Positions 1-12,077 of a stretch of DNA of 64,000 bases are shown here, piece after piece. The stretch's first letter is position 1. Every line of letters begins with the position of its first letter. The notes below the pieces were generated by a model. That model worked only from the letters and a program-made list of their open reading frames with translations. It was not told where the DNA came from and ran no database searches. Source of the DNA: a virus; the IMG/VR virus record IMGVR_UViG_3300011187_000003, positions 1-64,000 of that record. One strand, written 5' to 3'. Both the position numbers and the translations under genes were made by a program.

Positions 1-1371
1 AAAGTAATTACCTATGATAAAGCAGGAAATTCATCAGCTGATGGTTTTTATACCATGACTACAGATGATATTACTGAGCCTGTAATTGGCTACAATGTAA
101 ACTCTACTAGCTGGCAAAACACTGATGTAGACGAAACAGTTAATGTAGATGATGCAGGAGGCTCAGGAGTAGCAAACGCATGGTATAAGTGGACTAATTC
201 AGCCACACAACCTACTGATGGATGGGTAGTAATGGGTACAACTACAGACTTCTCTACACCACAATCACAGGAAGGTAAATGGTACTTACACATAAAAGCT
301 ACTGATAACTATGATAACACAGCGTACGACTACTCAGGAGCCTATAAGATTGATAAAACAGTACCAACTATCTCATCTACTAATATCTCAATTGACTCCC
401 CTACTGGCATTTATGATACATATACAGCTACAGTAACATGGACTATTGAAGATGACAGAGCAGGAGTAGATAGAACAGAGATAGGCTTTTATGTAGATGG
501 AACATGGTATTATGATGAGACCAACTTACCTGATGGAATAACAGCAGATATAGATATGGATAATGTAACAGGTAATGGTAGTAAGACAGCTACATTTAGT
601 AATGTACCTAGAGAGATTGATATTGCCACTAGTTGGCAAGGGTATGACATTGCGACTAATGAAACAGTTGAAGAGCAGAGTGAAACAGTTTATACACCTA
701 GAATATATGAAACATATACTACAGTTACACCAACTTCATATGAGATAGGAAAGACAGATACTTTAATTATTCCTACTGAATATGAAATAGGAATCACTGA
801 TAGTACTCAATCACCTAGTGAGTATATAATTGATGTGCTTTCAAAATCAACTTCAGCACCTAGTGTTTATGGAATAGGACTGACTCAAGCATCAACCATA
901 GCTCCTAGTGAATATGAGATAGGCATTACTGATTCAAAATCAGCCCCTAGTCTTTACGACATCATTGCCTTATATGATGAACCTATATTAGTTAGTGGTA
1001 AATACAAACAAGGCTTAAGAATAGGAACATCAGATATTGAGGTAGATGTTAGTGAATTTTCAGGTGGCTGGACAATGCACTTATTCAGAAGAGGAGAGCA
1101 AGATAAAGAATTTAGAGATATATTCGCTCTTTCAAGTGGGGATGTATATATAGATGGTGAAGTAGATGAATCCTATGACACTAGCTGGTTTACACACACT
1201 GAAGATAAAATAACAATTAAAAGTGGTGCAATAGATATAGATGAGTTATTAATTATACCATATGAATTAGTACCATCAGAGATAAAGACATTAACAGGTT
1301 CTGCTTTCTATGACACTAGTCCAAATATAACGATTGGCAAACCTAGTACAGCAAATATGGAGGTTTTATAA
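1..1371 (+). CDS. Tail/baseplate-associated structural protein, 5'-truncated
   Basis: Frame open from base 1; Thr/Asp-rich Ig-like segments (WYLHIKATD..N, DKAGN), repeated PS.Y.IG motif; lies upstream of the lysis genes. Confidence 0.6.
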   Translation, partial: KVITYDKAGNSSADGFYTMTTDDITEPVIGYNVNSTSWQNTDVDETVNVDDAGGSGVANAWYKWTNSATQPTDGWVVMGTTTDFSTPQSQEGKWYLHIKATDNYDNTAYDYSGAYKIDKTVPTISSTNISIDSPTGIYDTYTATVTWTIEDDRAGVDRTEIGFYVDGTWYYDETNLPDGITADIDMDNVTGNGSKTATFSNVPREIDIATSWQGYDIATNETVEEQSETVYTPRIYETYTTVTPTSYEIGKTDTLIIPTEYEIGITDSTQSPSEYIIDVLSKSTSAPSVYGIGLTQASTIAPSEYEIGITDSKSAPSLYDIIALYDEPILVSGKYKQGLRIGTSDIEVDVSEFSGGWTMHLFRRGEQDKEFRDIFALSSGDVYIDGEVDESYDTSWFTHTEDKITIKSGAIDIDELLIIPYELVPSEIKTLTGSAFYDTSPNITIGKPSTANMEVL

Positions 1372-1372
1372 A

Positions 1373-2593
1373 ATGGCAAAGGTATATAAGGATATTTACA
1401 TAGATTGGGACTGGACTGGAGATAATAATTTACTGAAGGGGTTTAATGTTGGAATTACCCCTTCCAGTGGTGACCCTAAGCATGATGCAATTATTATTCA
1501 AAAGACAAGTGCAGAAAAAACTGATATAAAAGATAAAGGTACAGAGCAGTATGAACATATTTTTAGAAATGTAATACTAGAGAAAGGTGTTGAACATATT
1601 GCATGGGTACAGGCATTAACTGAAGGAGACGACAGTGACTGGTTAAGTACTAACAAAATGGTAGTAGCAGATGATGGAACAGCTACAGTTGCTACTACAG
1701 ATGCAGATGGTAATCCTATTACAGCTTCAAGTGGAGATGTAGTAATTGACAACAGTGGTATTAGTATTGCCAATGGTAAACTAACCATTAATGGCTCTCA
1801 AGGAGCTAGCCAAGATGATGTTAGCAGTACGAAAACAGATGTTGAGAATTATGCAGATGGTGTTGCTGATACTGCTGAGGAAAATGCCAAAAACTATGCA
1901 CAGGCTAAAATACCAAAATCTATGACAGCACCAAGTAACCCGAATGATGGTGACTTATGGATAGACATTACCCCCATCCCTAACATCTTAAAAAGATACG
2001 AGTCAGATACAACTAGTTGGGTTAAATTAACACCTACTAGCCCTAATGATGTAGGAGCAGAGGGAGAGATAATTAAATCTAGCACAGCACCAAATAGCCC
2101 CTATACAGGTAAGTTATGGGTAGATACATCTATGTCACCTAGTGCACTTAAAAGATACAATGGTACATCTTGGGAGACAACAAGAATAACTGATACATCA
2201 CAAGTAAACGATGGTGCAGGATTAGGAAGTACAGCAGATTGGACACAAGTTAATGATGATGGTGGTAAACCTGTAGATAATGCGACTCCTAATGATTTTG
2301 ATTTATATGTAGGAATAGGTGGTGGTGGAGATGTAAGGATAGACTCAGATGGGCTAACCATAAACAATGGAAAGTTAACCATTAATGGTTCTACTCCTGA
2401 TAAGACATCTGAGAATCATGCTAAAGACCAACATGACTTTGACCAGCTGGAAGGAAGTGCTGGTAAGATAACAATTAATAGTGATGGAATAACAGCAGAG
2501 AACAGTGATGGATATAAAACAGTTGATATTGGCTCTGAACAAGGGGATGCTTTCTTTTCAGGTGATGTTGTTGGAGCAGTATATAATGAATAA
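1373..2593 (+). CDS. Tail fibre/host-specificity-type protein
   Basis: GGAGG RBS before ATG 1373; repeated AP..P..G.LW.D and ID..G++I.NGKLTING motifs typical of tail proteins. Confidence 0.65.
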   Translation: MAKVYKDIYIDWDWTGDNNLLKGFNVGITPSSGDPKHDAIIIQKTSAEKTDIKDKGTEQYEHIFRNVILEKGVEHIAWVQALTEGDDSDWLSTNKMVVADDGTATVATTDADGNPITASSGDVVIDNSGISIANGKLTINGSQGASQDDVSSTKTDVENYADGVADTAEENAKNYAQAKIPKSMTAPSNPNDGDLWIDITPIPNILKRYESDTTSWVKLTPTSPNDVGAEGEIIKSSTAPNSPYTGKLWVDTSMSPSALKRYNGTSWETTRITDTSQVNDGAGLGSTADWTQVNDDGGKPVDNATPNDFDLYVGIGGGGDVRIDSDGLTINNGKLTINGSTPDKTSENHAKDQHDFDQLEGSAGKITINSDGITAENSDGYKTVDIGSEQGDAFFSGDVVGAVYNE

Positions 2594-2616
2594 TTTAAAT
2601 AAATGTATAGTATTGG

Positions 2617-2645
2617 TTGAAAAAGTATAATGTTTTGTGTATAAT
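2617..2645 (+). promoter_or_regulatory. Promoter TTGAAA-17-TATAAT upstream of the Cys-repeat/radical SAM operon
   Basis: tggTTGAAA...tgtgTATAATaata; the same motif recurs at five other intergenic sites in the window. Confidence 0.65.
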
Positions 2646-2679
2646 AATATTAGAAAAGGAAAGAGGGAGGTGATATTTA

Positions 2680-4170
2680 ATGTCATATTGTGGTTCAGGA
2701 GATACAACTTCTTGGACTGACCCCTCTTTGGTGGCAAATAAAGCATCAGTTAGAGGAATACATATGAGGGAGTTAAGGAAAGCAGTTCAAGAATTTCATG
2801 TAGAAACTGCAGGTGGTGATGCTGGCAAAAGAGTCATTTGGGATAAAAATGATAACAACTGCACAACAGGAGAGTCAACAAGTTCTCCTAATTATGGAGT
2901 TGTTGACAAGGTTACTACTATAAAAGCTAAACATATAACACAACTTAGAAATATTTTAGATTCATATTCTAATTTGCAGGGGTTCTCATCCTTCTATTGG
3001 GAAGAAGATGATGTTAGTGGTGGCATTACAAAAATTAGAGCTACACATATTAAAAGATTAAGAAATGCAGTTAACCTAATAGAAGAAAGGGGAGCGCTTA
3101 ATTGTGAAAACTGTCAAACTTCTTATGAATACAATCCATGTGGCTCATCATGCCAAACAACTTCAGAAACAAACCCTTGTCAAACATGTGAATCAGTAAT
3201 TGAAGGATATGATTGTGACTCAAATTGTCAGGTTTCTTGCCAAAGAACCTGCCAGCTATGTGAAGCTTGCACAGAGACTGGTTGTGAAACTGGTTGTGAG
3301 GTAGCATGTGAATCGACTTGTGAAAAATCATGTCAAACCTCTACACAAACTTGCTCTACATGCGATATAAGTTGTCAAACAGCATGTGAAACTGACCCAT
3401 GTCAAGTTTGCCAAAGTACCTGTGAGTCAAGTTGTCAAAGTGGCTGTGAAGATAGCTGTGAGGGTACATGTGAGAATACATGCGAAACTGCATGTGAAGA
3501 TAGCTGTCAGGCTACTTGTCAGTCAGTTTGCCAAACTCAATGTGAGGCTGATTGCCAACAGGCATGTGAGTTATTCTGTGAGACAACCTGCGAACAATCA
3601 TGTGAAAGCTCTTGTGACACAGGGTGCGAAGATGCCTGTGAGGAAGGTTGTGAAACTAGTTGTGAAGTAAGTTGTCAGGACAGTTGTGAAACTGGATGTA
3701 TGACAACATGTGAAATTGGTTGCCAAATGTCATGTGAGCTTATGTGTGAAGATGCATGTGAGATAAACTGCATGACTGCTTGTGAGACTGGTTGTCAACT
3801 TTTATGTGAAATGAGTTGCCAAACAACTTGTGAACAATATTGTCAAGTAGGCTGTGAGGTAAGCTGTGAAACAGGATGTGAAGTTTCTTGTGAGGAAGGC
3901 TGTGAGGTAAGCTGTGAAACAGGATGTGAAGTAAGTTGTCAGGACAGTTGTGAAACTGGATGTATGACAACATGTGAAATTGGGTGTGAAACTGGTTGTC
4001 AGGTTAATTGTCAATATGCTTGTGAGTATGAATCTCAGCACAGTGACCACAGTGACCACAGTGACCACAGTGACCACAGTGACCACAGTGACCACAGTGA
4101 CCACAGTGATTATTCAAATACATGGTCAGGAGATGCACCAGGATGTGGTACAGGTGATACAATTGGCTAA
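2680..4170 (+). CDS. Cys-rich repeat protein (74 Cys in C(E/Q)xx register plus (HSD)8); putative radical SAM substrate
   Basis: GGAGGTG RBS; N-terminal domain with three I(K/R)A.H+..LR repeats; Cys core 3103-4023; directly upstream of three radical SAM genes. Confidence 0.85.
   Translation: MSYCGSGDTTSWTDPSLVANKASVRGIHMRELRKAVQEFHVETAGGDAGKRVIWDKNDNNCTTGESTSSPNYGVVDKVTTIKAKHITQLRNILDSYSNLQGFSSFYWEEDDVSGGITKIRATHIKRLRNAVNLIEERGALNCENCQTSYEYNPCGSSCQTTSETNPCQTCESVIEGYDCDSNCQVSCQRTCQLCEACTETGCETGCEVACESTCEKSCQTSTQTCSTCDISCQTACETDPCQVCQSTCESSCQSGCEDSCEGTCENTCETACEDSCQATCQSVCQTQCEADCQQACELFCETTCEQSCESSCDTGCEDACEEGCETSCEVSCQDSCETGCMTTCEIGCQMSCELMCEDACEINCMTACETGCQLLCEMSCQTTCEQYCQVGCEVSCETGCEVSCEEGCEVSCETGCEVSCQDSCETGCMTTCEIGCETGCQVNCQYACEYESQHSDHSDHSDHSDHSDHSDHSDHSDYSNTWSGDAPGCGTGDTIG
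3661..3983 (+). repeat. Internal exact duplications in the Cys-repeat gene
   Basis: 3661-3719 recurs at 3925-3983; 3850-3884 recurs at 3898-3932. Confidence 0.85.
4039..4110 (+). repeat. Tandem repeat (CACAGTGAC)x8 encoding (His-Ser-Asp)8
   Basis: Eight 9-bp units read directly, last unit ends GAT. Confidence 0.97.
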
Positions 4171-4192
4171 AAAGAACAAAAGGAGGGGTATT

Positions 4193-5041
4193 TTGTACCT
4201 TGATTTACATATCACAAAAAGATGTAACTTAGATTGTAAACATTGCTATTTAAGCAGTAAAGAAAAAGAGCAGGGTAGTGATATGAGTTTTAAAGTACTA
4301 AAAAACATAGCAAATAATTACTTAAATATTAATCATCCTTCTACAGCAGAGAAAAGAATTATAATAAGTGGGGGAGAACCAACATTACACCCTGAAATTG
4401 ATAGATTTTTATCTTACATTAATAAAGTTTATGATGGAAGATTAATTATTCCCTCTAATGGAGTAGGTGTAAAGAGGCTGCTTGACACTGGAGCAGTCTC
4501 TAAACAAAATAGAATACAAATTAGCTTAGATGGCAATAAAAAAATACATGATTCTATAAGGGGAGAAGGTAGTTTTGGAACTGCTATAGAAGCGTTAAGG
4601 GAGCTAAAAAGAAGAGGGTTTAAAACACATATATTTTTTACTATCAACCAACATAATGAGCATACATTCTCAGAAGTTAAGAGGATAGCAAAAGGTCTTG
4701 GTGTAAAGGTCTTTCTTAATTACTACCATAGTGTAGACAACACAAAAGACAGCTTGGGGATGATAAGTAAGTCAAAGTTTATAAAATATTTAAAGAATTA
4801 TAACAATACAAATAAATGCTATTTAAATAATTGTGTTGCTGGGATAGAAGGATGTGTTGTTATGCCAAATGGTGAATATTATGACTGCACAAGGAACATG
4901 AAATACTTAGGAAAGTACCCATCAAAATTAGAAGAGGTTTTGTTGATGAGTAGAGCCAAGGACTATGACTATAAAAACCCTTGTAATACTTGTATGTCAC
5001 TAGAGGTTGATAATTTTGAATTTAGTTGTTTAGGAAGGTAG
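4193..5041 (+). CDS. Radical SAM protein 1 with short Cys-rich C-terminal (twitch/SPASM-like) domain
   Basis: AGGAGG then TTG 4193 (ORF-track start 3974 is spurious); CNLDCKHC, SGGEP, ISLDG, C-terminal CYLNNCVAG...C...C..C. Confidence 0.9.
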   Translation: MYLDLHITKRCNLDCKHCYLSSKEKEQGSDMSFKVLKNIANNYLNINHPSTAEKRIIISGGEPTLHPEIDRFLSYINKVYDGRLIIPSNGVGVKRLLDTGAVSKQNRIQISLDGNKKIHDSIRGEGSFGTAIEALRELKRRGFKTHIFFTINQHNEHTFSEVKRIAKGLGVKVFLNYYHSVDNTKDSLGMISKSKFIKYLKNYNNTNKCYLNNCVAGIEGCVVMPNGEYYDCTRNMKYLGKYPSKLEEVLLMSRAKDYDYKNPCNTCMSLEVDNFEFSCLGR

Positions 5042-5051
5042 GGGATAGATA

Positions 5052-5936
5052 TTGTTTATTGATTTACATGTGACTGAAAGATGCAACCTTAGATGTAAAC
5101 ATTGCTATCTTGATGAGGAGTACTTTGAGAATGGAAAGCAAATGTCATTTGATATGTACACTTCATTAGTAGATAAGCTTTACACAATGGAACACAAAGA
5201 TGACCATAGAAAGGTCTACTTAAGTGGTGGGGAATGTACTACCCACCCAAGAATTGGAGATATGATTAAGTATATTCATTATAAATATAATGATTCTATA
5301 GCAATGGTAACAAATGGCTATAAAATTCCTGAATTATTAAAGGGGACTGCACTTACCCCTGATGATGGCCTCTCTATTAGCCTAGATGGTAATAAAGAGG
5401 TTCATAATTGGGTAAGGGGGGATGGTTCCTTTCAACAGGTCAAAGAGGCACTAAAAGCTTTACAGAACCATAATCACCATAATTATAATTTACACCTTAC
5501 TGTTCATCAAAAAAACATAGACCAAGTTGAAGAGGTTTGTGAGTTTGGTAAAAAGTATGGCGCAGGTATGGTTGGGATTAACTTCTTTCAACCAGTTAGG
5601 GGAGAGGAGCATCCATTTGACTCTGTGTCACTAGACCAATATTGGGATGCAGTAGAAACTGCAAAAGAATATTTTGGTCACAAGAAATACAGGACACCAT
5701 GTTATGTGAATGGTTGTCATGCAGGAATAGATGCTCTAGCAATATTACCTGATGGTACTTATTGGGATTGTGCTAGAAACCAAAAAGAATTAGGTAAGTA
5801 TCCTGAAGATTTTGAAAAAGCTATATATAGAAACTTGCTTGAATTATATGGAAAAAGGGACTCTAGGGAAACATGCATGAAGGGATATGTGGAAACTATA
5901 GGAGAAATAAAAAACTATAAGGGAGAGGATAATTAA
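5052..5936 (+). CDS. Radical SAM protein 2, paralogue of protein 1
   Basis: CNLRCKHC, SGGE, ISLDG, CYVNGCHAG...DC...C; colinear with 4193-5041. Confidence 0.92.
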   Translation: MFIDLHVTERCNLRCKHCYLDEEYFENGKQMSFDMYTSLVDKLYTMEHKDDHRKVYLSGGECTTHPRIGDMIKYIHYKYNDSIAMVTNGYKIPELLKGTALTPDDGLSISLDGNKEVHNWVRGDGSFQQVKEALKALQNHNHHNYNLHLTVHQKNIDQVEEVCEFGKKYGAGMVGINFFQPVRGEEHPFDSVSLDQYWDAVETAKEYFGHKKYRTPCYVNGCHAGIDALAILPDGTYWDCARNQKELGKYPEDFEKAIYRNLLELYGKRDSRETCMKGYVETIGEIKNYKGEDN

Positions 5937-5937
5937 T

Positions 5938-7248
5938 ATGGAGAACAATAACTTTAAGGAAATTTCAAACATTTCACTATTATTAACTGAGGATTGTAAC
6001 TTTAGATGTGAGTATTGCTTTATTGACAAAAACCCTAGTGAAATATCACTTGAAACTGCTAAAGATGCAGTTGATTGGCTGGTAGGGCAAAATGAAAATG
6101 ATAGATTACATATTAACTTTTTTGGAGGAGAACCAATGTTGAAGTTTGACCTAATCAAAAAAATTGTTCTATATGCAGAAAATAACTATGATAGACAATT
6201 TGGTTTTGGTGTAACAACTAATGGTTCTTTATTTAATGATGAAAGATTAGACTTCTTTGAAGAGCATAATATGTCAGCACTATTTTCTATAGATGGTATT
6301 GAAGAAGTACATAATAGACATAGGAAATATAAGGATGGCTCAGGAACTTTTAAAGATGTTGAAGAGAACATGAAAAAATGTGTAGAAAGAGGGATATCAA
6401 GAGTAGGTAGGCCAACATATACTCCTGAAACCTTACCACATTTATATGAAACAGTTAAATATCTACTGGATGAGATTGGGTTTAAGTCTGTATCACCAAC
6501 ACCAGCTGTAGATGGTTTCATTGAGTTTACTGAGGAAGATTATGAGGAGTATGACAAGCAATGGAAGAAAATTAATAAGTATTTTAAAGATAGCATCCTA
6601 ATGGAAGAGGATGTAGGTTTAGGGTATTACAGCAAATGCTTTAGACAGCATTTTGGACAACATAAAATGCAAACTCCATGTGGTGCAGGTAAAAAGTATG
6701 TAGGTATCAATCATAAAGGAGATATCTTTCCCTGTCACAGATTCGTGCAATGGCAAGAATGGAAGTTAGGTGATGTTTATGATGGCATAAAATATAATCA
6801 AAGAAGAAGTATTTTTCATGACTTTCATAATGATGATACTAGTGAAGAGTGCAGGAAGTGTGATAATAAATTCTGTGGTGGTGGATGTTTTGCAGTAAAC
6901 TATTCTACTACAGGAGATATTCATAAAACCAGTAAGGATAGCTGTAAGCTATCTAAATTACAGTGGGATAATGCAATGGATATTTATGAAGAGCTTAAGA
7001 TGTCAAATAAATTCCAACAAAAATATAGTCAATATATTGAAAATGCCCCTGAAGAAATAAAAGAAGAGATTGGGTATAATGATGAAGAAAAAAGAGATAA
7101 CAAACAAAGCAGGGACAAACAACAGTATCAATCCTCACAAAAGAGTAATGATATTGAGGAGCTAAAGAAAAGGGTTGATAATTTAGAGCAAGCAGTATCA
7201 TCAATTAGTAATATTATACTAGAAAATTCTAAGGAGGAAGGTAGATAA
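5938..7248 (+). CDS. Radical SAM/SPASM peptide maturase-like protein 3
   Basis: CNFRCEYC, FFGGEP, TTNG, SIDG; full SPASM CGAG...IFPCHRF...C..C....CGGGC...C; C-terminal coiled coil. Confidence 0.93.
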   Translation: MENNNFKEISNISLLLTEDCNFRCEYCFIDKNPSEISLETAKDAVDWLVGQNENDRLHINFFGGEPMLKFDLIKKIVLYAENNYDRQFGFGVTTNGSLFNDERLDFFEEHNMSALFSIDGIEEVHNRHRKYKDGSGTFKDVEENMKKCVERGISRVGRPTYTPETLPHLYETVKYLLDEIGFKSVSPTPAVDGFIEFTEEDYEEYDKQWKKINKYFKDSILMEEDVGLGYYSKCFRQHFGQHKMQTPCGAGKKYVGINHKGDIFPCHRFVQWQEWKLGDVYDGIKYNQRRSIFHDFHNDDTSEECRKCDNKFCGGGCFAVNYSTTGDIHKTSKDSCKLSKLQWDNAMDIYEELKMSNKFQQKYSQYIENAPEEIKEEIGYNDEEKRDNKQSRDKQQYQSSQKSNDIEELKKRVDNLEQAVSSISNIILENSKEEGR

Positions 7249-7568
7249 TGACAAAAGTTATTTTAAAAGATGCAGACAACACAGAACTATTTAGTAAGGC
7301 AGATAGTGAGTTTGAAAAAGCAGAGATTCTTAAGAGAAAAAGAACCAATGAAGGAGTGGTAGAACTCTTCTCGTTAGAACTTCCAATAGGTCAAGACACA
7401 TTTTTAGAGCAATACAACTCTCTCTCAGAAGGTACTATTGTATTTTCTGATGAAGAGGCTGGAATAAACAAAGGGTTAGAAATTAATGAGGTTGATGAGT
7501 ACAAAATATCAACTAATAGAAGTGGTCAGCTTGTAGAGGTACTTAGTTTCGCAGGCCAAATTCAATAA
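7248..7568 (+). CDS. Hypothetical protein, coupled to radical SAM 3
   Basis: AAGGAGG RBS, TAATG stop/start overlap. Confidence 0.75.
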   Translation: MTKVILKDADNTELFSKADSEFEKAEILKRKRTNEGVVELFSLELPIGQDTFLEQYNSLSEGTIVFSDEEAGINKGLEINEVDEYKISTNRSGQLVEVLSFAGQIQ

Positions 7569-7621
7569 CTAAAAGGGGTGAGACTCCCCTCCTCTGTTTG
7601 CAGTTAAATATTCAGAATATT

Positions 7622-7858
7622 ATGAAAAGGAGTGATAATTTGGGAAGAGATAAGAAGTTACACTTTTTAGTTGGTGCTTTAATTGCCCTTATTGGTGGGG
7701 TTGTAATTTCCCCACTGACAGGCTTTATCTTAGCCTCTATAGCAGGAGTAGTTAAAGATGTTGGTTACGACCTAATACTAGACAAAGGGTGTTTTGAGGT
7801 ACTAGACATTGTTTACACAGTACTAGGGGGTTTATTAATATATATTATTTTAATTTAA
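7622..7858 (+). CDS. Small membrane protein (holin-like), start uncertain
   Basis: DK..HF motif, two to three hydrophobic segments, precedes the endolysin. Confidence 0.6.
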   Translation: MKRSDNLGRDKKLHFLVGALIALIGGVVISPLTGFILASIAGVVKDVGYDLILDKGCFEVLDIVYTVLGGLLIYIILI

Positions 7859-7871
7859 AAGGAGTGATTAA

Positions 7872-8438
7872 ATGATAATTGCACTAGATGCTGGACATGG
7901 GGCAAATGATGGGGGGGCTGTTGATGGAATAGGTGATGATGAGATTTACGAGGATGAGATTTACACTGAAGAAAGTGAGTTAGTATTAAGATACACTAAA
8001 GTACTTAAACAAAAGCTTGAAAGTAAATATGATATCTTACTCACTAGACATGACGATACATTTATCCCACTACATTGCAGAACAGATATAGCAGATGCTA
8101 ATGGAGCTGACCTATTTATCTCCATACATGCTAATTCTTTCTCAGACAGTGATGCAAAAGGTGCTGAGACGATTCATTACCCTACAAGTACAAAAGGCCA
8201 ACAGTTAGCTGTAACTGTACAGAATGGCCTTGTACGAGCCACAGGAGCAGTTGATAGAGGTACAAAGGGTAGAAATAACCTGTATGTACTTGAAGAAGTA
8301 CAAGCACCTGCAATATTAATTGAGTTAGGGTTTATATCAAACCCTGAAGAAGAAGAAAAATTACATAATGAAGAATATTTAGATAAAGCAACTAATGGAA
8401 TAGTTGAAGGAATTAACAAATACATAGAGAGGTGTTAG
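7872..8438 (+). CDS. N-acetylmuramoyl-L-alanine amidase (Amidase_3) endolysin
   Basis: LDAGHG, E, FISIHAN, ILIELGFISN motifs; no cell-wall binding domain. Confidence 0.95.
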   Translation: MIIALDAGHGANDGGAVDGIGDDEIYEDEIYTEESELVLRYTKVLKQKLESKYDILLTRHDDTFIPLHCRTDIADANGADLFISIHANSFSDSDAKGAETIHYPTSTKGQQLAVTVQNGLVRATGAVDRGTKGRNNLYVLEEVQAPAILIELGFISNPEEEEKLHNEEYLDKATNGIVEGINKYIERC

Positions 8439-8439
8439 G

Positions 8440-8877
8440 ATGAGCGACTCCAACAAAAATAGTGAAGAGCTAGGTGGAATCAAAACAAATATTACACAAC
8501 TAAAGAAAAGAGTGGAAAAACTGGAGAATAGAATAAAGGAACTAGAAAGGAAGTTTAATAACTTAGATAAGTCACACTCTAGGTTAGAGACACTAACCTC
8601 AAATCTTTCAAGTAAGATTGGCAGTTTTGACGACAAGCTAGATAACATTGTCAAAGAGATTGAAAATTTGAATAAGCAGTTGGCTGTTAACTCCACAAGG
8701 CAAAATATAGAGAGAGAACAGCGCAACCAAGAGAGAGAGAGCAATAAACTTACAGACCAACTGCTTGATAAGAGGAATCGTACAATATTAATCCTTGTAG
8801 TGGGGTTAGTGTCAGCACTATTGATTAGTTTAGGAATGAATGTCAAAGATGTTGTTGAATTATTTAGTATTATCTAA
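8440..8877 (+). CDS. Coiled-coil protein with C-terminal TM (XhlA-like lysis protein)
   Basis: Heptad repeats then ILILVVGLVSALLISLG; inside the lysis cassette. Confidence 0.6.
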   Translation: MSDSNKNSEELGGIKTNITQLKKRVEKLENRIKELERKFNNLDKSHSRLETLTSNLSSKIGSFDDKLDNIVKEIENLNKQLAVNSTRQNIEREQRNQERESNKLTDQLLDKRNRTILILVVGLVSALLISLGMNVKDVVELFSII

Positions 8878-8888
8878 GGAGTGATGCA

Positions 8889-9089
8889 ATGGACAAAAAT
8901 GAGAATGGTGTTGCTGACAAAAAAGAAGCCTACATATCTTATGGTATAGCTGGCATAGGTCTTATAATGGCTATCTCAGCGTTTTATATGTATCAAGAGT
9001 TTGGGCTTGCTAAAGATTTTTTTTACGCTTCTGTACTGCTCTCAGGGTTTCGTGATGGGATAGATGGTTTAAAAAAGTTTGTTAAATAG
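8889..9089 (+). CDS. Putative holin
   Basis: 66 aa, hydrophobic segments, basic C-terminus, RBS. Confidence 0.55.
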   Translation: MDKNENGVADKKEAYISYGIAGIGLIMAISAFYMYQEFGLAKDFFYASVLLSGFRDGIDGLKKFVK

Positions 9090-9104
9090 GAAGGGGAAGG
9101 TAAT

Positions 9105-9482
9105 ATGTTAAATAAAATTAAGAAGTATGGCTGGATTGCACTATCTGCAATCTTAGCCATTATCACTTTAGGTAAAATGACACTTAGTCATAAGGTACAA
9201 GAGAAAGAAGAGGAGATTGACGAGATTGAGAAGGCTAAACAAAAAAGTAAAGCTAGAGAAAAAGAGATAGATAAAAAACTTGATAAACTTGACAAAAAGA
9301 AAGAAGATGAAAATCATGATAGAAAATTAAAAAGAATAGATAGAAAGACAAAAAAGCTTGAGGAAGAAGGAAAGAAGTTAAGTGAGACAATATCCCAGCT
9401 GGATAAAGAGGGAGATGATGTTGATGAGCAAGAAGATAATAGCGTTAATACTGATAAGCTTGATGATGCTCTCAATAAGTAG
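9105..9482 (+). CDS. N-terminal TM plus coiled coil (i-spanin-like)
   Basis: WIALSAILAIITLG then charged coiled coil. Confidence 0.55.
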   Translation: MLNKIKKYGWIALSAILAIITLGKMTLSHKVQEKEEEIDEIEKAKQKSKAREKEIDKKLDKLDKKKEDENHDRKLKRIDRKTKKLEEEGKKLSETISQLDKEGDDVDEQEDNSVNTDKLDDALNK

Positions 9483-9873
9483 TCCAGTACTGGCCTACTA
9501 CAAGAATGATAATGGTGAGCTAGTCTTTAAACCTGAAGAAGTAAATACCATGCTGGATAAGATAGATAAATCTGAGACTAGGAAGCAAATTATAGACAAA
9601 CAGAAAGAGAAGATATCTAATCTTGAGGAACAGTTAAAACAAAAAGATAAAAAGATAGCAGTCCTAGAAGGTAAGAATCAGGATTTAAATAAAGAAGTTA
9701 ACCTACTAGAGTCAAAGGTGCAAGAGGTAGAGTTCCAGTTAGAGAAGGCAAATGAGCAGTTAAAACTACGAAAAGAGCAAGTTGATACCCTTCAAAAAAG
9801 GGAAAGCTTGTCCTTTACCTCAGAGCTGAAGCTGTTAATCGCTTTAAAAGCCTTTAGTATGGTGGCAAACTAG
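9415..9873 (+). CDS. Signal-peptide coiled-coil protein overlapping the previous gene (spanin partner-like)
   Basis: MSKKIIALILISLMMLSISSPVLA signal, coiled coil, 5' end nested in 9105-9482. Confidence 0.55.
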   Translation: MMLMSKKIIALILISLMMLSISSPVLAYYKNDNGELVFKPEEVNTMLDKIDKSETRKQIIDKQKEKISNLEEQLKQKDKKIAVLEGKNQDLNKEVNLLESKVQEVEFQLEKANEQLKLRKEQVDTLQKRESLSFTSELKLLIALKAFSMVAN

Positions 9874-9880
9874 AATATTT

Positions 9881-9911
9881 AAGGGTATCCTCAACTGGAT
9901 ACCCTTTTTTT
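9881..9911. terminator. Intrinsic terminator between convergent blocks
   Basis: aagggtatcc-tcaact-ggataccctt followed by T-run. Confidence 0.85.
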
Positions 9912-9912
9912 G

Positions 9913-10347
9913 TCAATATGATGTTCTTTTACCTAGATAAAACTCTATAAATATTTTATCATCTTTCATATCTAGTTCAAACTCAGGTAATTTAAACTTA
10001 CCCTCATCTGAGATATTATCTAAATAATCTTTTAAATCAGGTGCAGTAATTTTCTTAGGTTTACCTCCATACTTATCATTCTTCTTTTTTAAAGTAAACA
10101 TAGTACTGTATTCATTTGGTGCATCACATACAGCACAAACTAATTTTTCACTATCTTTATCGAATCCAATCATTATGTGTAGTTTCCCATTATTTTTATC
10201 AAATACATTATCAAACTTAGAGTTAATTTCTTTTAATAAATTTGCAGTAAAATATATTTTAACTTTTCTATCTTGCTCATAGTTGACTGTCAAATAACTG
10301 TCATAACTTCCACCTAACCAATTAATGTTATCTTTATTCCCAATCAT
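9913..10347 (-). CDS. Hypothetical protein, paralogue of 10334-10753
   Basis: Shared KIYF...IG.D pattern; overlapping start/stop. Confidence 0.7.
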   Translation of the reverse strand: MIGNKDNINWLGGSYDSYLTVNYEQDRKVKIYFTANLLKEINSKFDNVFDKNNGKLHIMIGFDKDSEKLVCAVCDAPNEYSTMFTLKKKNDKYGGKPKKITAPDLKDYLDNISDEGKFKLPEFELDMKDDKIFIEFYLGKRTSY

Positions 10348-10753
10348 TTACTATTTCCCCTTTCATATTATCTAATGGTTTGGTAAAGTCTGCATAATAA
10401 GTATTGCCTTCTAACTGTTTAACTTCATATCTTTGCAAATCACCTTTGTTAATTCCTGCAATATTCACAACTTTTCTAGTTATTCTACTAATATTAATTG
10501 TTCCAGTGCCTCCACCATTAGATATTACCAACCTTAATGAATCTATATCATTTACAGTTGTTTCTTTAAAGTACATTCTCTTCTTTATTGCATCAATCCC
10601 TATCTTAATAAATCTATTATTGTTCAATATGTCCCTTACTACTTTAGAATTAAAGTATATTTTTGAATTGTCTCTATTTGCTATACTAACGAATGGAACT
10701 TTAGCCCTTCTATTCCCAATTGACTTTTTGGGTTTAACCCATTCTACACTCAT
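10334..10753 (-). CDS. Hypothetical protein
   Basis: RBS, 139-aa ORF in operon. Confidence 0.7.
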   Translation of the reverse strand: MSVEWVKPKKSIGNRRAKVPFVSIANRDNSKIYFNSKVVRDILNNNRFIKIGIDAIKKRMYFKETTVNDIDSLRLVISNGGGTGTINISRITRKVVNIAGINKGDLQRYEVKQLEGNTYYADFTKPLDNMKGEIVNDWE

Positions 10754-10756
10754 GTT

Positions 10757-11065
10757 TTATTCCCCTTTCCCAAACTCACCTATATTGTCAATAGTTTTGT
10801 TAAGCTCTTCATAGAGGTCTTTATCCTCAGTTTCTTGATAAATCTTAGTCGTACTAATTCTATGCTTAATATCCTGCAATGCCTCATTGTATAGCTGGCC
10901 TGTCTCATGCTTGTATAAAGTTTTAATAGCTCTTCTAACCAACTGAGACTTAGACAAAGACTCTAGTTGTTCCTCAACAAACTCTAACTCCTCTTTCTTC
11001 ATATTATTCTCAGAAAGCCTACCATAGAGCTTAACATGTTTAATCTTATCCCTCATTTTTATCAA
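10757..11065 (-). CDS. ParR-like adaptor (ribbon-helix-helix-like)
   Basis: Small ORF overlapping the 3' end of the actin-like gene; SKSQLVRRAI helix. Confidence 0.55.
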   Translation of the reverse strand: MIKMRDKIKHVKLYGRLSENNMKKEELEFVEEQLESLSKSQLVRRAIKTLYKHETGQLYNEALQDIKHRISTTKIYQETEDKDLYEELNKTIDNIGEFGKGE

Positions 11066-12077
11066 CTCTTTTGTTTTGGTAGACCCCTAATTTATAGTAT
11101 CCTTTTACATTAGATATCTGTGGGTCATCCATAAGGATTACCTCTTTATTAGCCCTGTTAATAAACTTCTTCTTAAGATAACCACCTACAGCCTTAGCAC
11201 CACCACCTGTAAGGATAATCTTATGAACATTATCTAAATAGCGATTCCATTGTGCTAACAACTTAGTGTATATTTCTTCAGCTAACAACTCAAACTGTTT
11301 ATCAGACCTACTCTGAAGGTTCCTGTAAGTCTTTCTACCATACTTAAATTCATCCTCTCCATTTAGATAATGGAATTGAATAATGTTATAGGGTAAACTA
11401 GGGTCAACAGCTTTAAAGGCATCACTTAACCCAACACCAAGTCCTACATCTGTACCTTTAGTTGGCACCATCCCTTTACCTGCAAAAGCATCTACTGTGT
11501 TACCTCCTATATCAACTAGTCCATATCTTTCATTTAGTAACTCATGGTCTTTGATTGCTCCTGAGTAAGTTAAAACTTCATCATAGTATGCTCCAATCCC
11601 CTGTGGAATACACATAACATCATTGATAATGACTTTTCTTTCCTCACCATTTGTTTTGTAGTGAAATACTCTATCTTTATAGAAGTCAATAAATTCTTCT
11701 CTAAACTCATAATAACTTCTTATAGATAAACCACCAACTAACTTACCAATCTCTACACTCTTTTCATTAGAATGTAGTGCAATACCAGCTAATAACTTAG
11801 CAACTTCACTTTCATCTTTAAATTTGTCATACTCAAAATTCCTGTTACCACCTTGTCCATCTTGCTGAATTGCATAGTTACCTAAGAAATACAGCTTATC
11901 ATTATACTGTATTGATATCTTATCAATTGTCAATGAGTTATCCTCATCAATTAAGATATCTCTACTTTGCTTAGGTAGGTAAGAGACAGAGGGGAATATG
12001 ATAGCTTCACTTGATTCTAACATTAGTTTATCACTATCATATCCATTATCCCAACCTATTTGTTCTAAATATTTCAT
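11046..12077 (-). CDS. parM: ParM/StbA-family actin-like ATPase
   Basis: GWDNGYDSDK (phosphate 1), PQG, DIGGNTVD (phosphate 2), ILTGGGA. Confidence 0.88.
   Translation of the reverse strand: MKYLEQIGWDNGYDSDKLMLESSEAIIFPSVSYLPKQSRDILIDEDNSLTIDKISIQYNDKLYFLGNYAIQQDGQGGNRNFEYDKFKDESEVAKLLAGIALHSNEKSVEIGKLVGGLSIRSYYEFREEFIDFYKDRVFHYKTNGEERKVIINDVMCIPQGIGAYYDEVLTYSGAIKDHELLNERYGLVDIGGNTVDAFAGKGMVPTKGTDVGLGVGLSDAFKAVDPSLPYNIIQFHYLNGEDEFKYGRKTYRNLQSRSDKQFELLAEEIYTKLLAQWNRYLDNVHKIILTGGGAKAVGGYLKKKFINRANKEVILMDDPQISNVKGYYKLGVYQNKRVDKNEG

Follow-up and report, generated by a model that had tools for sequence, protein, structure and literature searches.

The window analysed here comprises the first 64,000 bases (1-64000) of the 87,725-bp IMG/VR virus record IMGVR_UViG_3300011187_000003, which carries direct terminal repeats. 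Near its beginning, on the + strand, lies a gene (2680-4170, stop codon included) encoding a protein of 496 aa with 77 Cys residues, which we term the Cys-ladder protein and whose architecture recurs in the protein relatives P0001 and P0002 and in the viral loci L001 and L002. The gene is followed on the same strand by three genes for radical S-adenosylmethionine (radical SAM) enzymes, w1, w2 and w3, and by a short open reading frame (ORF). The Cys-ladder protein begins with an N-terminal domain (aa 1-141, 2680-3102) containing three helix motifs of the type H-x-x-(E/Q/R)-L-R-x-A, continues with an irregular Cys-rich stretch (aa 142-243, 3103-3408; Cys spacings 3, 4, 5, 7 and 9), which is conserved in the close family, and then enters an array of 52 uninterrupted C-[E/Q/M/D]-x-x units (aa 244-451, 3409-4032), closed by Q453 at position +5 of the last Cys. 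Beyond the array lie the triplets (His-Ser-Asp)x8, whose coding DNA is a tandem repeat with a period of 9 bp and without a mismatch (4039-4109; 7.9 copies, 100% matches), and a C-terminal tip of the form W-S/T-G-D-x-P-G-C...G (4110-4167), conserved in close relatives.

Translation of 2680-4170 bears out what the first-pass annotation of this DNA had noticed, namely a run of 52 consecutive Cys residues at a spacing of exactly four, from CQST (C244, nt 3409) to CEYE (C448, Cys codon 4021-4023), in which the residue following the Cys is always E, Q, D or M (E 34, Q 14, M 3, D 1). The same annotation had placed this run at 3103-4023; the end coincides with the codon of C448, but 3103 corresponds to C142 of the irregular stretch, and the run itself starts only at 3409. 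Such regularity is far beyond what composition alone provides (74 Cys in the 310 aa of residues 142-451), the longest spacing-4 run in 10,000 shuffles of aa 142-451 being 6 (mean 2.6) compared with the 52 observed. The array is not a simple DNA microsatellite, since 45 of its 52 12-nt units and 36 of its 52 4-aa units are distinct, and the same diversity of units rules out a non-coding tandem repeat. Windows of 53 nt within the array DNA are 60-72% alike, the single exception being a 138-nt duplication at 82%. The reading frame is real because homologues keep both the N-domain (~65% identity) and the Cys pattern while differing in array length.

The N-domain has 28 invariant residues in an alignment of 8 sequences and matches no Pfam or NCBIfam family. 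An AlphaFold2 model of aa 1-245, made from an 8-row alignment, places helices at 26-42, 83-99 and 121-139, the model being poor (mean predicted local distance difference test score, pLDDT, 34; predicted template modelling score, pTM, 0.26). The Atlas model of the whole protein is likewise poor (pTM 0.27, pLDDT 0.43), and the phage proteins with immunoglobulin (Ig) or fn3-type domains that appeared as its structure neighbours were set aside for this reason. A complex prediction with three copies of aa 1-145 gave a score of 0.00 and returned no answer, and a sequence search of the PDB with the array protein yielded no homologue and one chance match (E 0.14). At the other end of the protein, the tip residues W482, G484, D485, P487, G488, C489, T491, D493 and G496 are invariant in 3 sequences. 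The (HSD)8 repeat is followed by Y-S-N and W-S-G, and relatives instead have segments of the type D-W-S-G-D-Y-S-D-C-G at this place.

The three enzymes downstream are of two kinds. The shorter w1 (282 aa, 4193-5041) has a TTG start after AGGAGG and the motif CxxxCxxC at residues 11-18; w2 (294 aa, 5052-5936) is its paralogue with 34% identity. Both have a reduced C-terminal Cys set, and in NCBIfam both match many SPASM/twitch families weakly and none specifically. The third, w3 (436 aa, 5938-7248), is a radical SAM/SPASM enzyme with the motif C-N-F-R-C-E-Y-C at 20-27, a Radical_SAM domain (PF04055, 71.4 bits, cut-off 29.5) and a SPASM domain (PF13186, 24.5 bits, Pfam cut-off 21.5). Its Cys residues 234, 248, 266, 305, 308, 313, 317 and 336 align with the SPASM region of CteB, corresponding to the Cys set for two auxiliary clusters. 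The best NCBIfam family of w3 is PapB (NF047865; 280.7 bits, cut-off 340), with a match spanning profile positions 2-329 of 330, followed by the nif11 radical SAM family, QhpD and the SCIFF maturase. Among solved structures the closest is CteB (E 2.2e-50), such that both the family and the structure search place w3 nearest to PapB, QhpD and CteB, enzymes that link Cys to the side chains of Asp, Glu or Thr.

Two features of w3 bear on how it might recognise its substrate. Since it aligns to residues 98-446 of the CteB chain only, the N-terminal RiPP recognition element (RRE; RiPP, ribosomally synthesised and post-translationally modified peptide) is absent from w3. Six CteB residues are named as being in proximity to the catalytic site in PMC10288494. 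By alignment, with the chain numbering offset by 3, five of these six are identical in w3 (F28, F62, T93, S117 and H267), and CteB Gln364 is replaced by R268. A charged, helix-like C-terminal extension of ~90 aa (aa 350-436, window 6985-7245) is conserved in L001 and L002, is absent from the profile matches to CteB and PapB, and could be a docking element that takes the place of the RRE. A scan of genome contigs with w3 gave a distant archaeal radical SAM protein as its sole match. The 106-aa ORF (7248-7568, +), which overlaps the stop codon of w3, occurs only in close relatives and belongs to no family. Among the ORFs of 2680-7568 no RRE, protease or exporter/transporter was found with Pfam, NCBIfam and PHROGs, models which divergent RREs can escape.

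The question then is which E/Q residue pairs with which Cys. This can be read at the edges of arrays, an array start being defined by the lack of any Cys in the preceding 12 residues, and the rows compared being the best matches to the window protein. At 81 true array starts, E/Q occupies +1 of the first Cys in 26%, but +5 in 90% (Met in a further 6/81) and -3 in 7%. At 28 true array ends the last Cys is followed by E/Q at +1 in 89% and at +5 in 79% (D in a further 7%), with +4 never Cys, whereas the other positions in the neighbourhood carry E/Q in 21% (+4), 11% (+6) and 18% (+9) of these ends. Where a Cys is missing in register at position p (72 sites), E/Q is kept at p+1 in 69/72, compared with a baseline of 64/72 at p-3, but at p+5 in only 29/72 (p+1 versus p+5, Fisher p = 1.3e-13). 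A replicate with 22 array ORFs from viral loci gave 3/12 at +1 versus 10/12 at +5 for starts, 7/7 at +5 versus 0/7 at +4 for ends, and 4/4 at p+1 versus 2/4 at p+5 for missing Cys. In the window protein itself E, Q, M or D stands at +5 of 67 of 74 Cys residues, and the array ends as C448-E-Y-E-S-Q453.

As far as pairing can be read from sequences, array starts, array ends and missing Cys all assign the conserved E/Q to the Cys that lies five residues before it and not to the Cys directly preceding it, as the first-pass annotation had supposed in proposing Cys(i)-E/Q(i+5) pairs. By this reading the E/Q series runs one unit behind the Cys series, N Cys being matched by N E/Q shifted by five residues. 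Of the start, end and missing-Cys tests, two or more contradict each of the registers i+1, i-3 and i+9.

How common such arrays are, and in which proteins they reside, was assessed by an exhaustive phmmer search, which found 812 proteins at E <= 1e-3, the best 150 of these 812 being inspected. The N-domain is present in only 7 of the 150, the remainder sharing the array, and word-based searches for longer or shorter relatives of the N-domain found none. The longest uninterrupted runs among these best 150 contain 142, 108, 98, 89 and 80 Cys residues, and a run of 64 occurs too, so that 52 units are not exceptional. Arrays mostly occupy the C-terminal part of long proteins: considered in 142 of the best 150, the median N-terminal flank is 403 aa, more than 300 aa precede the array in 87/142 and more than 100 aa follow it in 34/142. 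Over all runs of at least 5 Cys, the +1 residue is Q in 34.5% and E in 32.0%. In P0007, P0021, P0026 and P0059 the array lies between globular domains. In P0021 and P0026 an array stalk of ~270 aa separates a 110-aa N-domain from Ig-like domains, and a hydrophobic C-terminal anchor follows; to judge by this architecture these would be membrane- or envelope-anchored proteins and not tail proteins. A further group (P0018, P0022, P0024, P0027, P0029, P0030, P0045 and P0048) consists of proteins 1460-1800 aa long, whose Cxxx runs reach 142 Cys. Proteins of this P0018-like group show no E/Q preference at +1, where G, K, T and S are common, and P0018 has a Listeria-Bacteroides repeat domain; they may form a separate subclass with other partners.

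The linkage between arrays and enzymes was examined at viral loci collected by searching for DNA that could encode six C-[E/Q]-x-x units in a row; this degenerate pattern found at least 119 viral stretches. To be classed as diverse, an array needed 8 or more distinct units, a share of distinct units of no less than half, and E/Q in 60% or more; among the 119 listed stretches 14 are diverse arrays other than that of the window, 60 are of low diversity and 45 are without an in-frame E/Q array. A w3-like radical SAM gene accompanies the array gene in 11 of the 14 diverse loci among the matches listed, in eight of them inside the locus (at gaps of 0, 0, 0, 0, 4, 4, 763 and 4617 nt) and in three elsewhere on the contig (G014, G023 and G013). 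In two others (L020 and L074) the DNA ends at the array, and the last (L047/G012) has no radical SAM gene, its 'arrays' being ORFs of 55-103 aa of doubtful reality. Three loci below the diversity threshold (L016, L096 and L092) each have an adjacent radical SAM gene; L016 and L096 fall short by run length alone, with 7/7 units distinct. The other 102 listed loci, with no w3-like ORF in the available DNA, provide a rough internal control. The raw tally before classing, a radical SAM match in 12/29 records and in 2/9 among records at least 90% complete, looks weaker because it includes tandem-repeat false positives.

Fifty-eight of the 119 listed loci (for example, L004, L006, L010, L022, L024, L071, L094 and L122) are mostly 12-bp tandem repeats in short ORFs. 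These repeats read as CEPS, CERS, CEYN or CQGR, have no radical SAM gene nearby and often lie at contig ends (both ends of G009, one end of G003 and G029); they are probably non-coding terminal or iteron-like repeats that mimic Cxxx arrays.

The linked enzymes are mostly of one kind. Among eight further array-linked enzymes the best family is PapB in six, the SCIFF maturase in one and TIGR04115 in one. The last of these, at L145/G022, is a true TIGR04115 member (485.6 bits, cut-off 350), and its small array ORF passes TIGR04114, with a tape-measure gene adjoining. The types represented by w1/w2, the 106-aa ORF and the N-domain are limited to the close relatives L001 and L002 among the listed viral loci, and these two have one short radical SAM gene instead of two. 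At L151 (1133-2971, -, contig G013) a 613-aa protein with 138 Cys, and a longest run of 64 in the available part, is followed by a PapB-like radical SAM gene cut by the contig end. At L141 (9169-11721, -, contig G014) the array-linked radical SAM enzyme occupies an 851-aa frame, about twice the usual length, and matches w3 in three pieces; it may be a fusion or contain an inserted element such as an intein.

The large ORF 5' of the array gene is a tail gene in six of the seven loci tested, the seventh (L147) giving no match: it is a tape-measure gene in L148, L144, L145 and, weakly, L140, and a baseplate wedge subunit gene in L146 and L142. The array protein of L146 (403 aa) itself contains a Tail_P2_I (P2 gpI) domain (26.0 bits, Pfam cut-off 20.6). 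The array belongs, as a module, to tail and baseplate proteins of phages, a context missing from the first-pass annotation. In the present record the DNA beyond the window contains the large terminase gene (TerL), the gene for a tape-measure protein of 1650 aa and tail-fibre/minor-tail genes up to the end of the record, the gene order being TerL, tape measure, tail fibre, window 1-2593, array gene, radical SAM genes, holin-like ORF and amidase endolysin. Since the tape-measure and tail-fibre/minor-tail genes reach the end of the record, the array gene closes the tail block, just before lysis.

As a kind, the Cxxx-repeat target of radical SAM enzymes is already curated in NCBIfam and Pfam. The CXXX-repeat system of NCBIfam (maturase TIGR04115; targets TIGR04114, 'tSAM_targ_Cxxx', and TIGR04117) likewise has a Cys at every fourth residue, long arrays and an adjoining SPASM radical SAM enzyme, and the Pfam family PF27846 (tSAM_targ_Cxxx_rpt) is named in the Atlas output. 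To our knowledge these NCBIfam families are in-silico definitions without known chemistry. A literature search found no experimental paper on the curated CXXX-repeat families and, in a search mostly without subscription journals, none on phage Cxxx arrays with radical SAM enzymes. The window differs from this system in that w3 scores 139.2 bits against the TIGR04115 cut-off of 350, w1 and w2 do not have TIGR04115 among their best 25 matches, and the array part 3400-4170 scores 24.8 bits with TIGR04117 against a cut-off of 50; the whole array protein gives no match at E <= 0.01 to either TIGR04117 (cut-off 50) or TIGR04114 (cut-off 20). The window also adds two short radical SAM paralogues and a 140-aa N-domain, and its enzyme is nearer to PapB. 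What is new here is an enzyme of PapB/CteB-like and not TIGR04115 type, the two extra short radical SAM paralogues, the dedicated N-domain and the i/i+5 rule.

PapB, of the freyrasin system, is the best family both for w3 and for six of the eight other array-linked enzymes, and makes Cys-to-Asp/Glu side-chain thioethers. It accepts Cys-Xn-Asp/Glu with n = 0-6, thus including n = 4 (PMC9413430). Its native substrate is a short peptide with six C-X3-D motifs, whereas the window protein offers up to 67 C-X4-E/Q pairs within 496 aa and has Gln and Met at the acceptor place; the C-X3-D/E motif of PapB substrates does not occur in the array, where +4 is the next Cys and the coupled residue stands at +5. 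The description of the array as an expanded SCIFF-like register, offered by the first-pass annotation, is not sustained: w3 scores 206.1 bits with the SCIFF maturase (TIGR03974) against a cut-off of 425, matches only from profile position 95 and lacks the RRE, SCIFF peptides have ~45 aa and six Cys compared with 496 aa and 77 Cys here, and CXXX repeats are covered by the separate families TIGR04114, TIGR04117 and TIGR04115. With QhpD, w3 reaches 208.6 bits (cut-off 453), and the QhpD substrate QhpC, of quinohemoprotein amine dehydrogenase, carries few links, three in number, and no repeat ladder. QhpD is, however, also a radical SAM/SPASM enzyme, and it forms Cys-Asp (Cbeta) and Cys-Glu (Cgamma) thioethers in QhpC, itself a subunit of a larger assembly (PMC8326336).

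CteB (PDB 5WGG/5WHY) provides a contested precedent for the spacing, with a reported in vitro link between Cys32 and Thr37, that is, i+5 across a Cxxx-spaced core (PMC8326336). CrpA/CrpC of Methanococcus voltae (PMC13692751, 2026) is the closest system that has been worked out. CrpC is likewise a SPASM radical SAM enzyme and installs ranthionine-type thioether links on a whole Cys-repeat protein, CrpA, of 28.8 kDa, in which the Cys precedes the acceptor, as here, and acceptors of Met, Asp and Gln type occur. On the other hand, CrpC belongs to the family TIGR04463, with which w3 scores 64 bits against a cut-off of 525, and it has the RRE that w3 lacks; CrpA is an archaeal, cellular protein with 17-residue repeats of C-x-x-Q/D, in contrast to the four-residue register in a phage tail module.

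On these grounds we consider it somewhat probable that the Cys-ladder protein is a tail-module protein whose array is converted by radical SAM chemistry into a ladder of Cys(i)-E/Q(i+5) thioethers, the stapled rod serving as the stalk of a tail appendage. The array protein would be the last product of the tail-gene block, and its Cys-rich part would be acted on by the radical SAM enzymes that the phage encodes, chiefly by w3. The working unit would be C-x-x-x-x-[E/Q] and not C-[E/Q]-x-x, the acceptor (rarely Met or Asp) lying five residues downstream, after the next Cys. Most likely w3 abstracts a hydrogen from the acceptor side chain, and the resulting carbon would be joined to the Cys sulphur in a ranthionine-type thioether, as with QhpD, PapB and CrpC. 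The side chains of Glu, Gln and Met have an unbranched CH2-CH2 stretch in common. This fits an attack at Cgamma comparable to that of QhpD on Glu (PMC8326336), and it also agrees with the Met and Asp acceptors found in CrpA (PMC13692751). The bond, its atom and its completeness are what we infer; if all pairs were closed, up to 67 overlapping six-residue rings would result, successive rings sharing two residues, in one continuous ladder, such that the array would become a covalently stapled rod with no need of disulfides. A tail appendage could have this rod as its stalk, with the N-domain holding it and the conserved tip at its end, which supposes that the protein is present in the virion. 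Because there is no RRE, w3 would bind the array directly, and one may speculate that its ~90-aa C-terminal extension docks on the N-domain. The irregular Cys stretch and the aromatic-Ser-x triplets of the tail are candidate targets of w1 and w2, the triplets being a possible second substrate, and the 106-aa ORF presumably also has a role in the module.

Several observations weigh against this proposal. The link of CteB invoked by the first-pass annotation as established is a contested precedent, Cys32-Thr37 having been found in vitro but Cys32-Thr34 after co-expression (PMC8326336). Furthermore, w3 lies below the curated cut-off in every NCBIfam family, and its reaction is therefore not assignable by family membership. 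Within the irregular part of the window protein, the 13 Cys without a Cys at +4 have E/Q/D/M at +5 in 6/13, as opposed to 11/13 at +1, and over the whole family the +5 peak is weak for those Cys that have no Cys at +4, at 35% compared with 26-31% at +4 and +6. The edge-test rows, being the best matches to the window protein, are biased towards E/Q-type arrays, and one protein can contribute several rows. A non-covalent or metal-mediated contact would equally give rise to the i/i+5 coupling. The array protein itself matches no tail family in Pfam, NCBIfam or PHROGs and only phrog_6085, of unknown function (E 2.1e-5), and where other array proteins match tail PHROGs, they mostly do so weakly (E 1e-4 to 1e-6). 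Finally, the module seems to be served by a promoter and a terminator of its own and adjoins the lysis genes, which is a typical place for a 'moron'. A sigma-70-like match (TTGAAA-17-TATAAT, 2617-2645, +; 11/12, a consensus match only) lies 35 nt 5' of the array gene and is the best-scoring in 2300-8000, where the total of 27 matches, compared with 22.5 +/- 5.3 in shuffles, is not enriched. A terminator-like hairpin (7574-7590, +; 5 pairs, 4 of them G-C, again a consensus match only) lies directly 3' of the 106-aa ORF, and the two signals bracket five genes: the array gene, w1, w2, w3 and the 106-aa ORF.

The likeliest of the alternatives places the protein outside the virion, as a very large RiPP-like precursor or as the product of an accessory 'moron' gene. 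In such a case the N-domain would serve as leader or recognition element for the same thioether rings, and the product, whole or cleaved, would be released at lysis and act on competitors, the host envelope or metals. The maturase-like nature of the enzymes, the promoter-like site before and the terminator-like site after the module, its position directly 5' of the holin-like and endolysin genes and the leader-core-like layout of N-domain and C-terminal Cys core, for which CrpA offers a parallel (PMC13692751), are all consistent with this. Yet the module ORFs include no protease, transporter or RRE detectable with the models mentioned above; in other phages the arrays sit at the C-terminus or in the interior of proteins 800-1800 aa long and of a baseplate protein of P2 gpI type, and come after tape-measure or baseplate genes; and a conserved tip lies 3' of the array. 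We regard a released product of this type as unlikely.

A metal- or iron-sulphur-binding rod, perhaps an oligomeric fibre, with Glu/Gln as ligands or second shell alongside the Cys, is a good deal less likely again. Some phage fibre tips have metal ions along their core. The extreme Cys density (74 Cys in 310 aa) would suit a rod of this sort, on which the radical SAM enzymes would do something else or which they would use only as a cluster donor; the pairwise Cys/E-Q coupling could reflect a shared metal site, and CrpA has been discussed as a possible metal binder (PMC13692751). Against this stand the tight and repeated linkage of the array with a thioether-type SPASM enzyme and the absence of both His and the CxxC pattern from the regular array, while the free replacement of Glu by Gln and Met at the paired position would fit a shared aliphatic CH2 better than a carboxylate ligand. 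Other radical chemistry might take the form of Calpha (sactionine) linkages, of Cys oxidation as carried out by anaerobic sulfatase maturases, or of C-C bonds that w1/w2 would form on the aromatic-Ser-x triplets. It is suggested by the sactisynthase, sulfatase-maturase and cyclophane-forming families lower in the match lists of w1-w3, by the lack of any specific family for w1 and w2, and by the aromatic-x-x triplets of the (HSD)8-YSN-WSG tail and of the D-W-S-G-D-Y-S-D motifs in relatives, but appears quite improbable given that the four best families of w3 are thioether-forming or close kin, that five of the six CteB proximity residues are kept, and that the w3 type alone accompanies arrays in diverse phages, the w1/w2 types occurring in close relatives only.

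A genuine thioether ladder would exceed every known ribosomal product in density of cross-links by a wide margin and would be a first case of radical SAM thioether chemistry building a virus particle. It would also explain a gene set without assigned role that recurs in the tail modules of very different phages. It is conceivable, though we would not yet call it probable, that many phages build parts of their tail appendages in this way, as a thioether-ladder polymer with tens to more than 100 rings per chain, made by radical SAM enzymes without a leader-binding domain. Such a polymer would provide a redox-insensitive and protease-resistant rod, replacing disulfides in virions that are assembled in the reducing cytoplasm. 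Likewise, the i/i+5 rule suggests a minimal substrate, repeats of C-x4-E/Q, for an enzyme without an RRE, which would be of interest for peptide stapling.

The phage is known from metagenomes only. A comparison with the phage GenBank collection gave no DNA match for window 1-12000 and one weak tblastn match to the array. Near-identical DNA was found in metagenome runs from lake water and a salt lake; three runs besides the possible source contain 59-69% of the sampled words, and since all date from 2017 they may represent one campaign. There is no RNA run among the sequencing runs with near-identical DNA. Metagenome runs mapped on the array gene gave fragmentary contigs with no indels in the array. 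In three lake metagenome runs there are contigs that fit only 2779-2799 and 3922-3954, with loose ends resembling the shorter-array relative P0001; this hints at best that phages differing in array length occur together, only 21 letters fitting on one side of the joint 2799-3922. Finally, in L001 (6596-9833) and L002 (6597-9834) an insert, which the window does not have, lies between the tail-fibre and array genes. It encodes a 337-aa protein, a 377-aa reverse transcriptase-like ORF with the motif Y-M-D-D and a 126-aa ORF, and looks like a diversity-generating retroelement targeting a tail protein.

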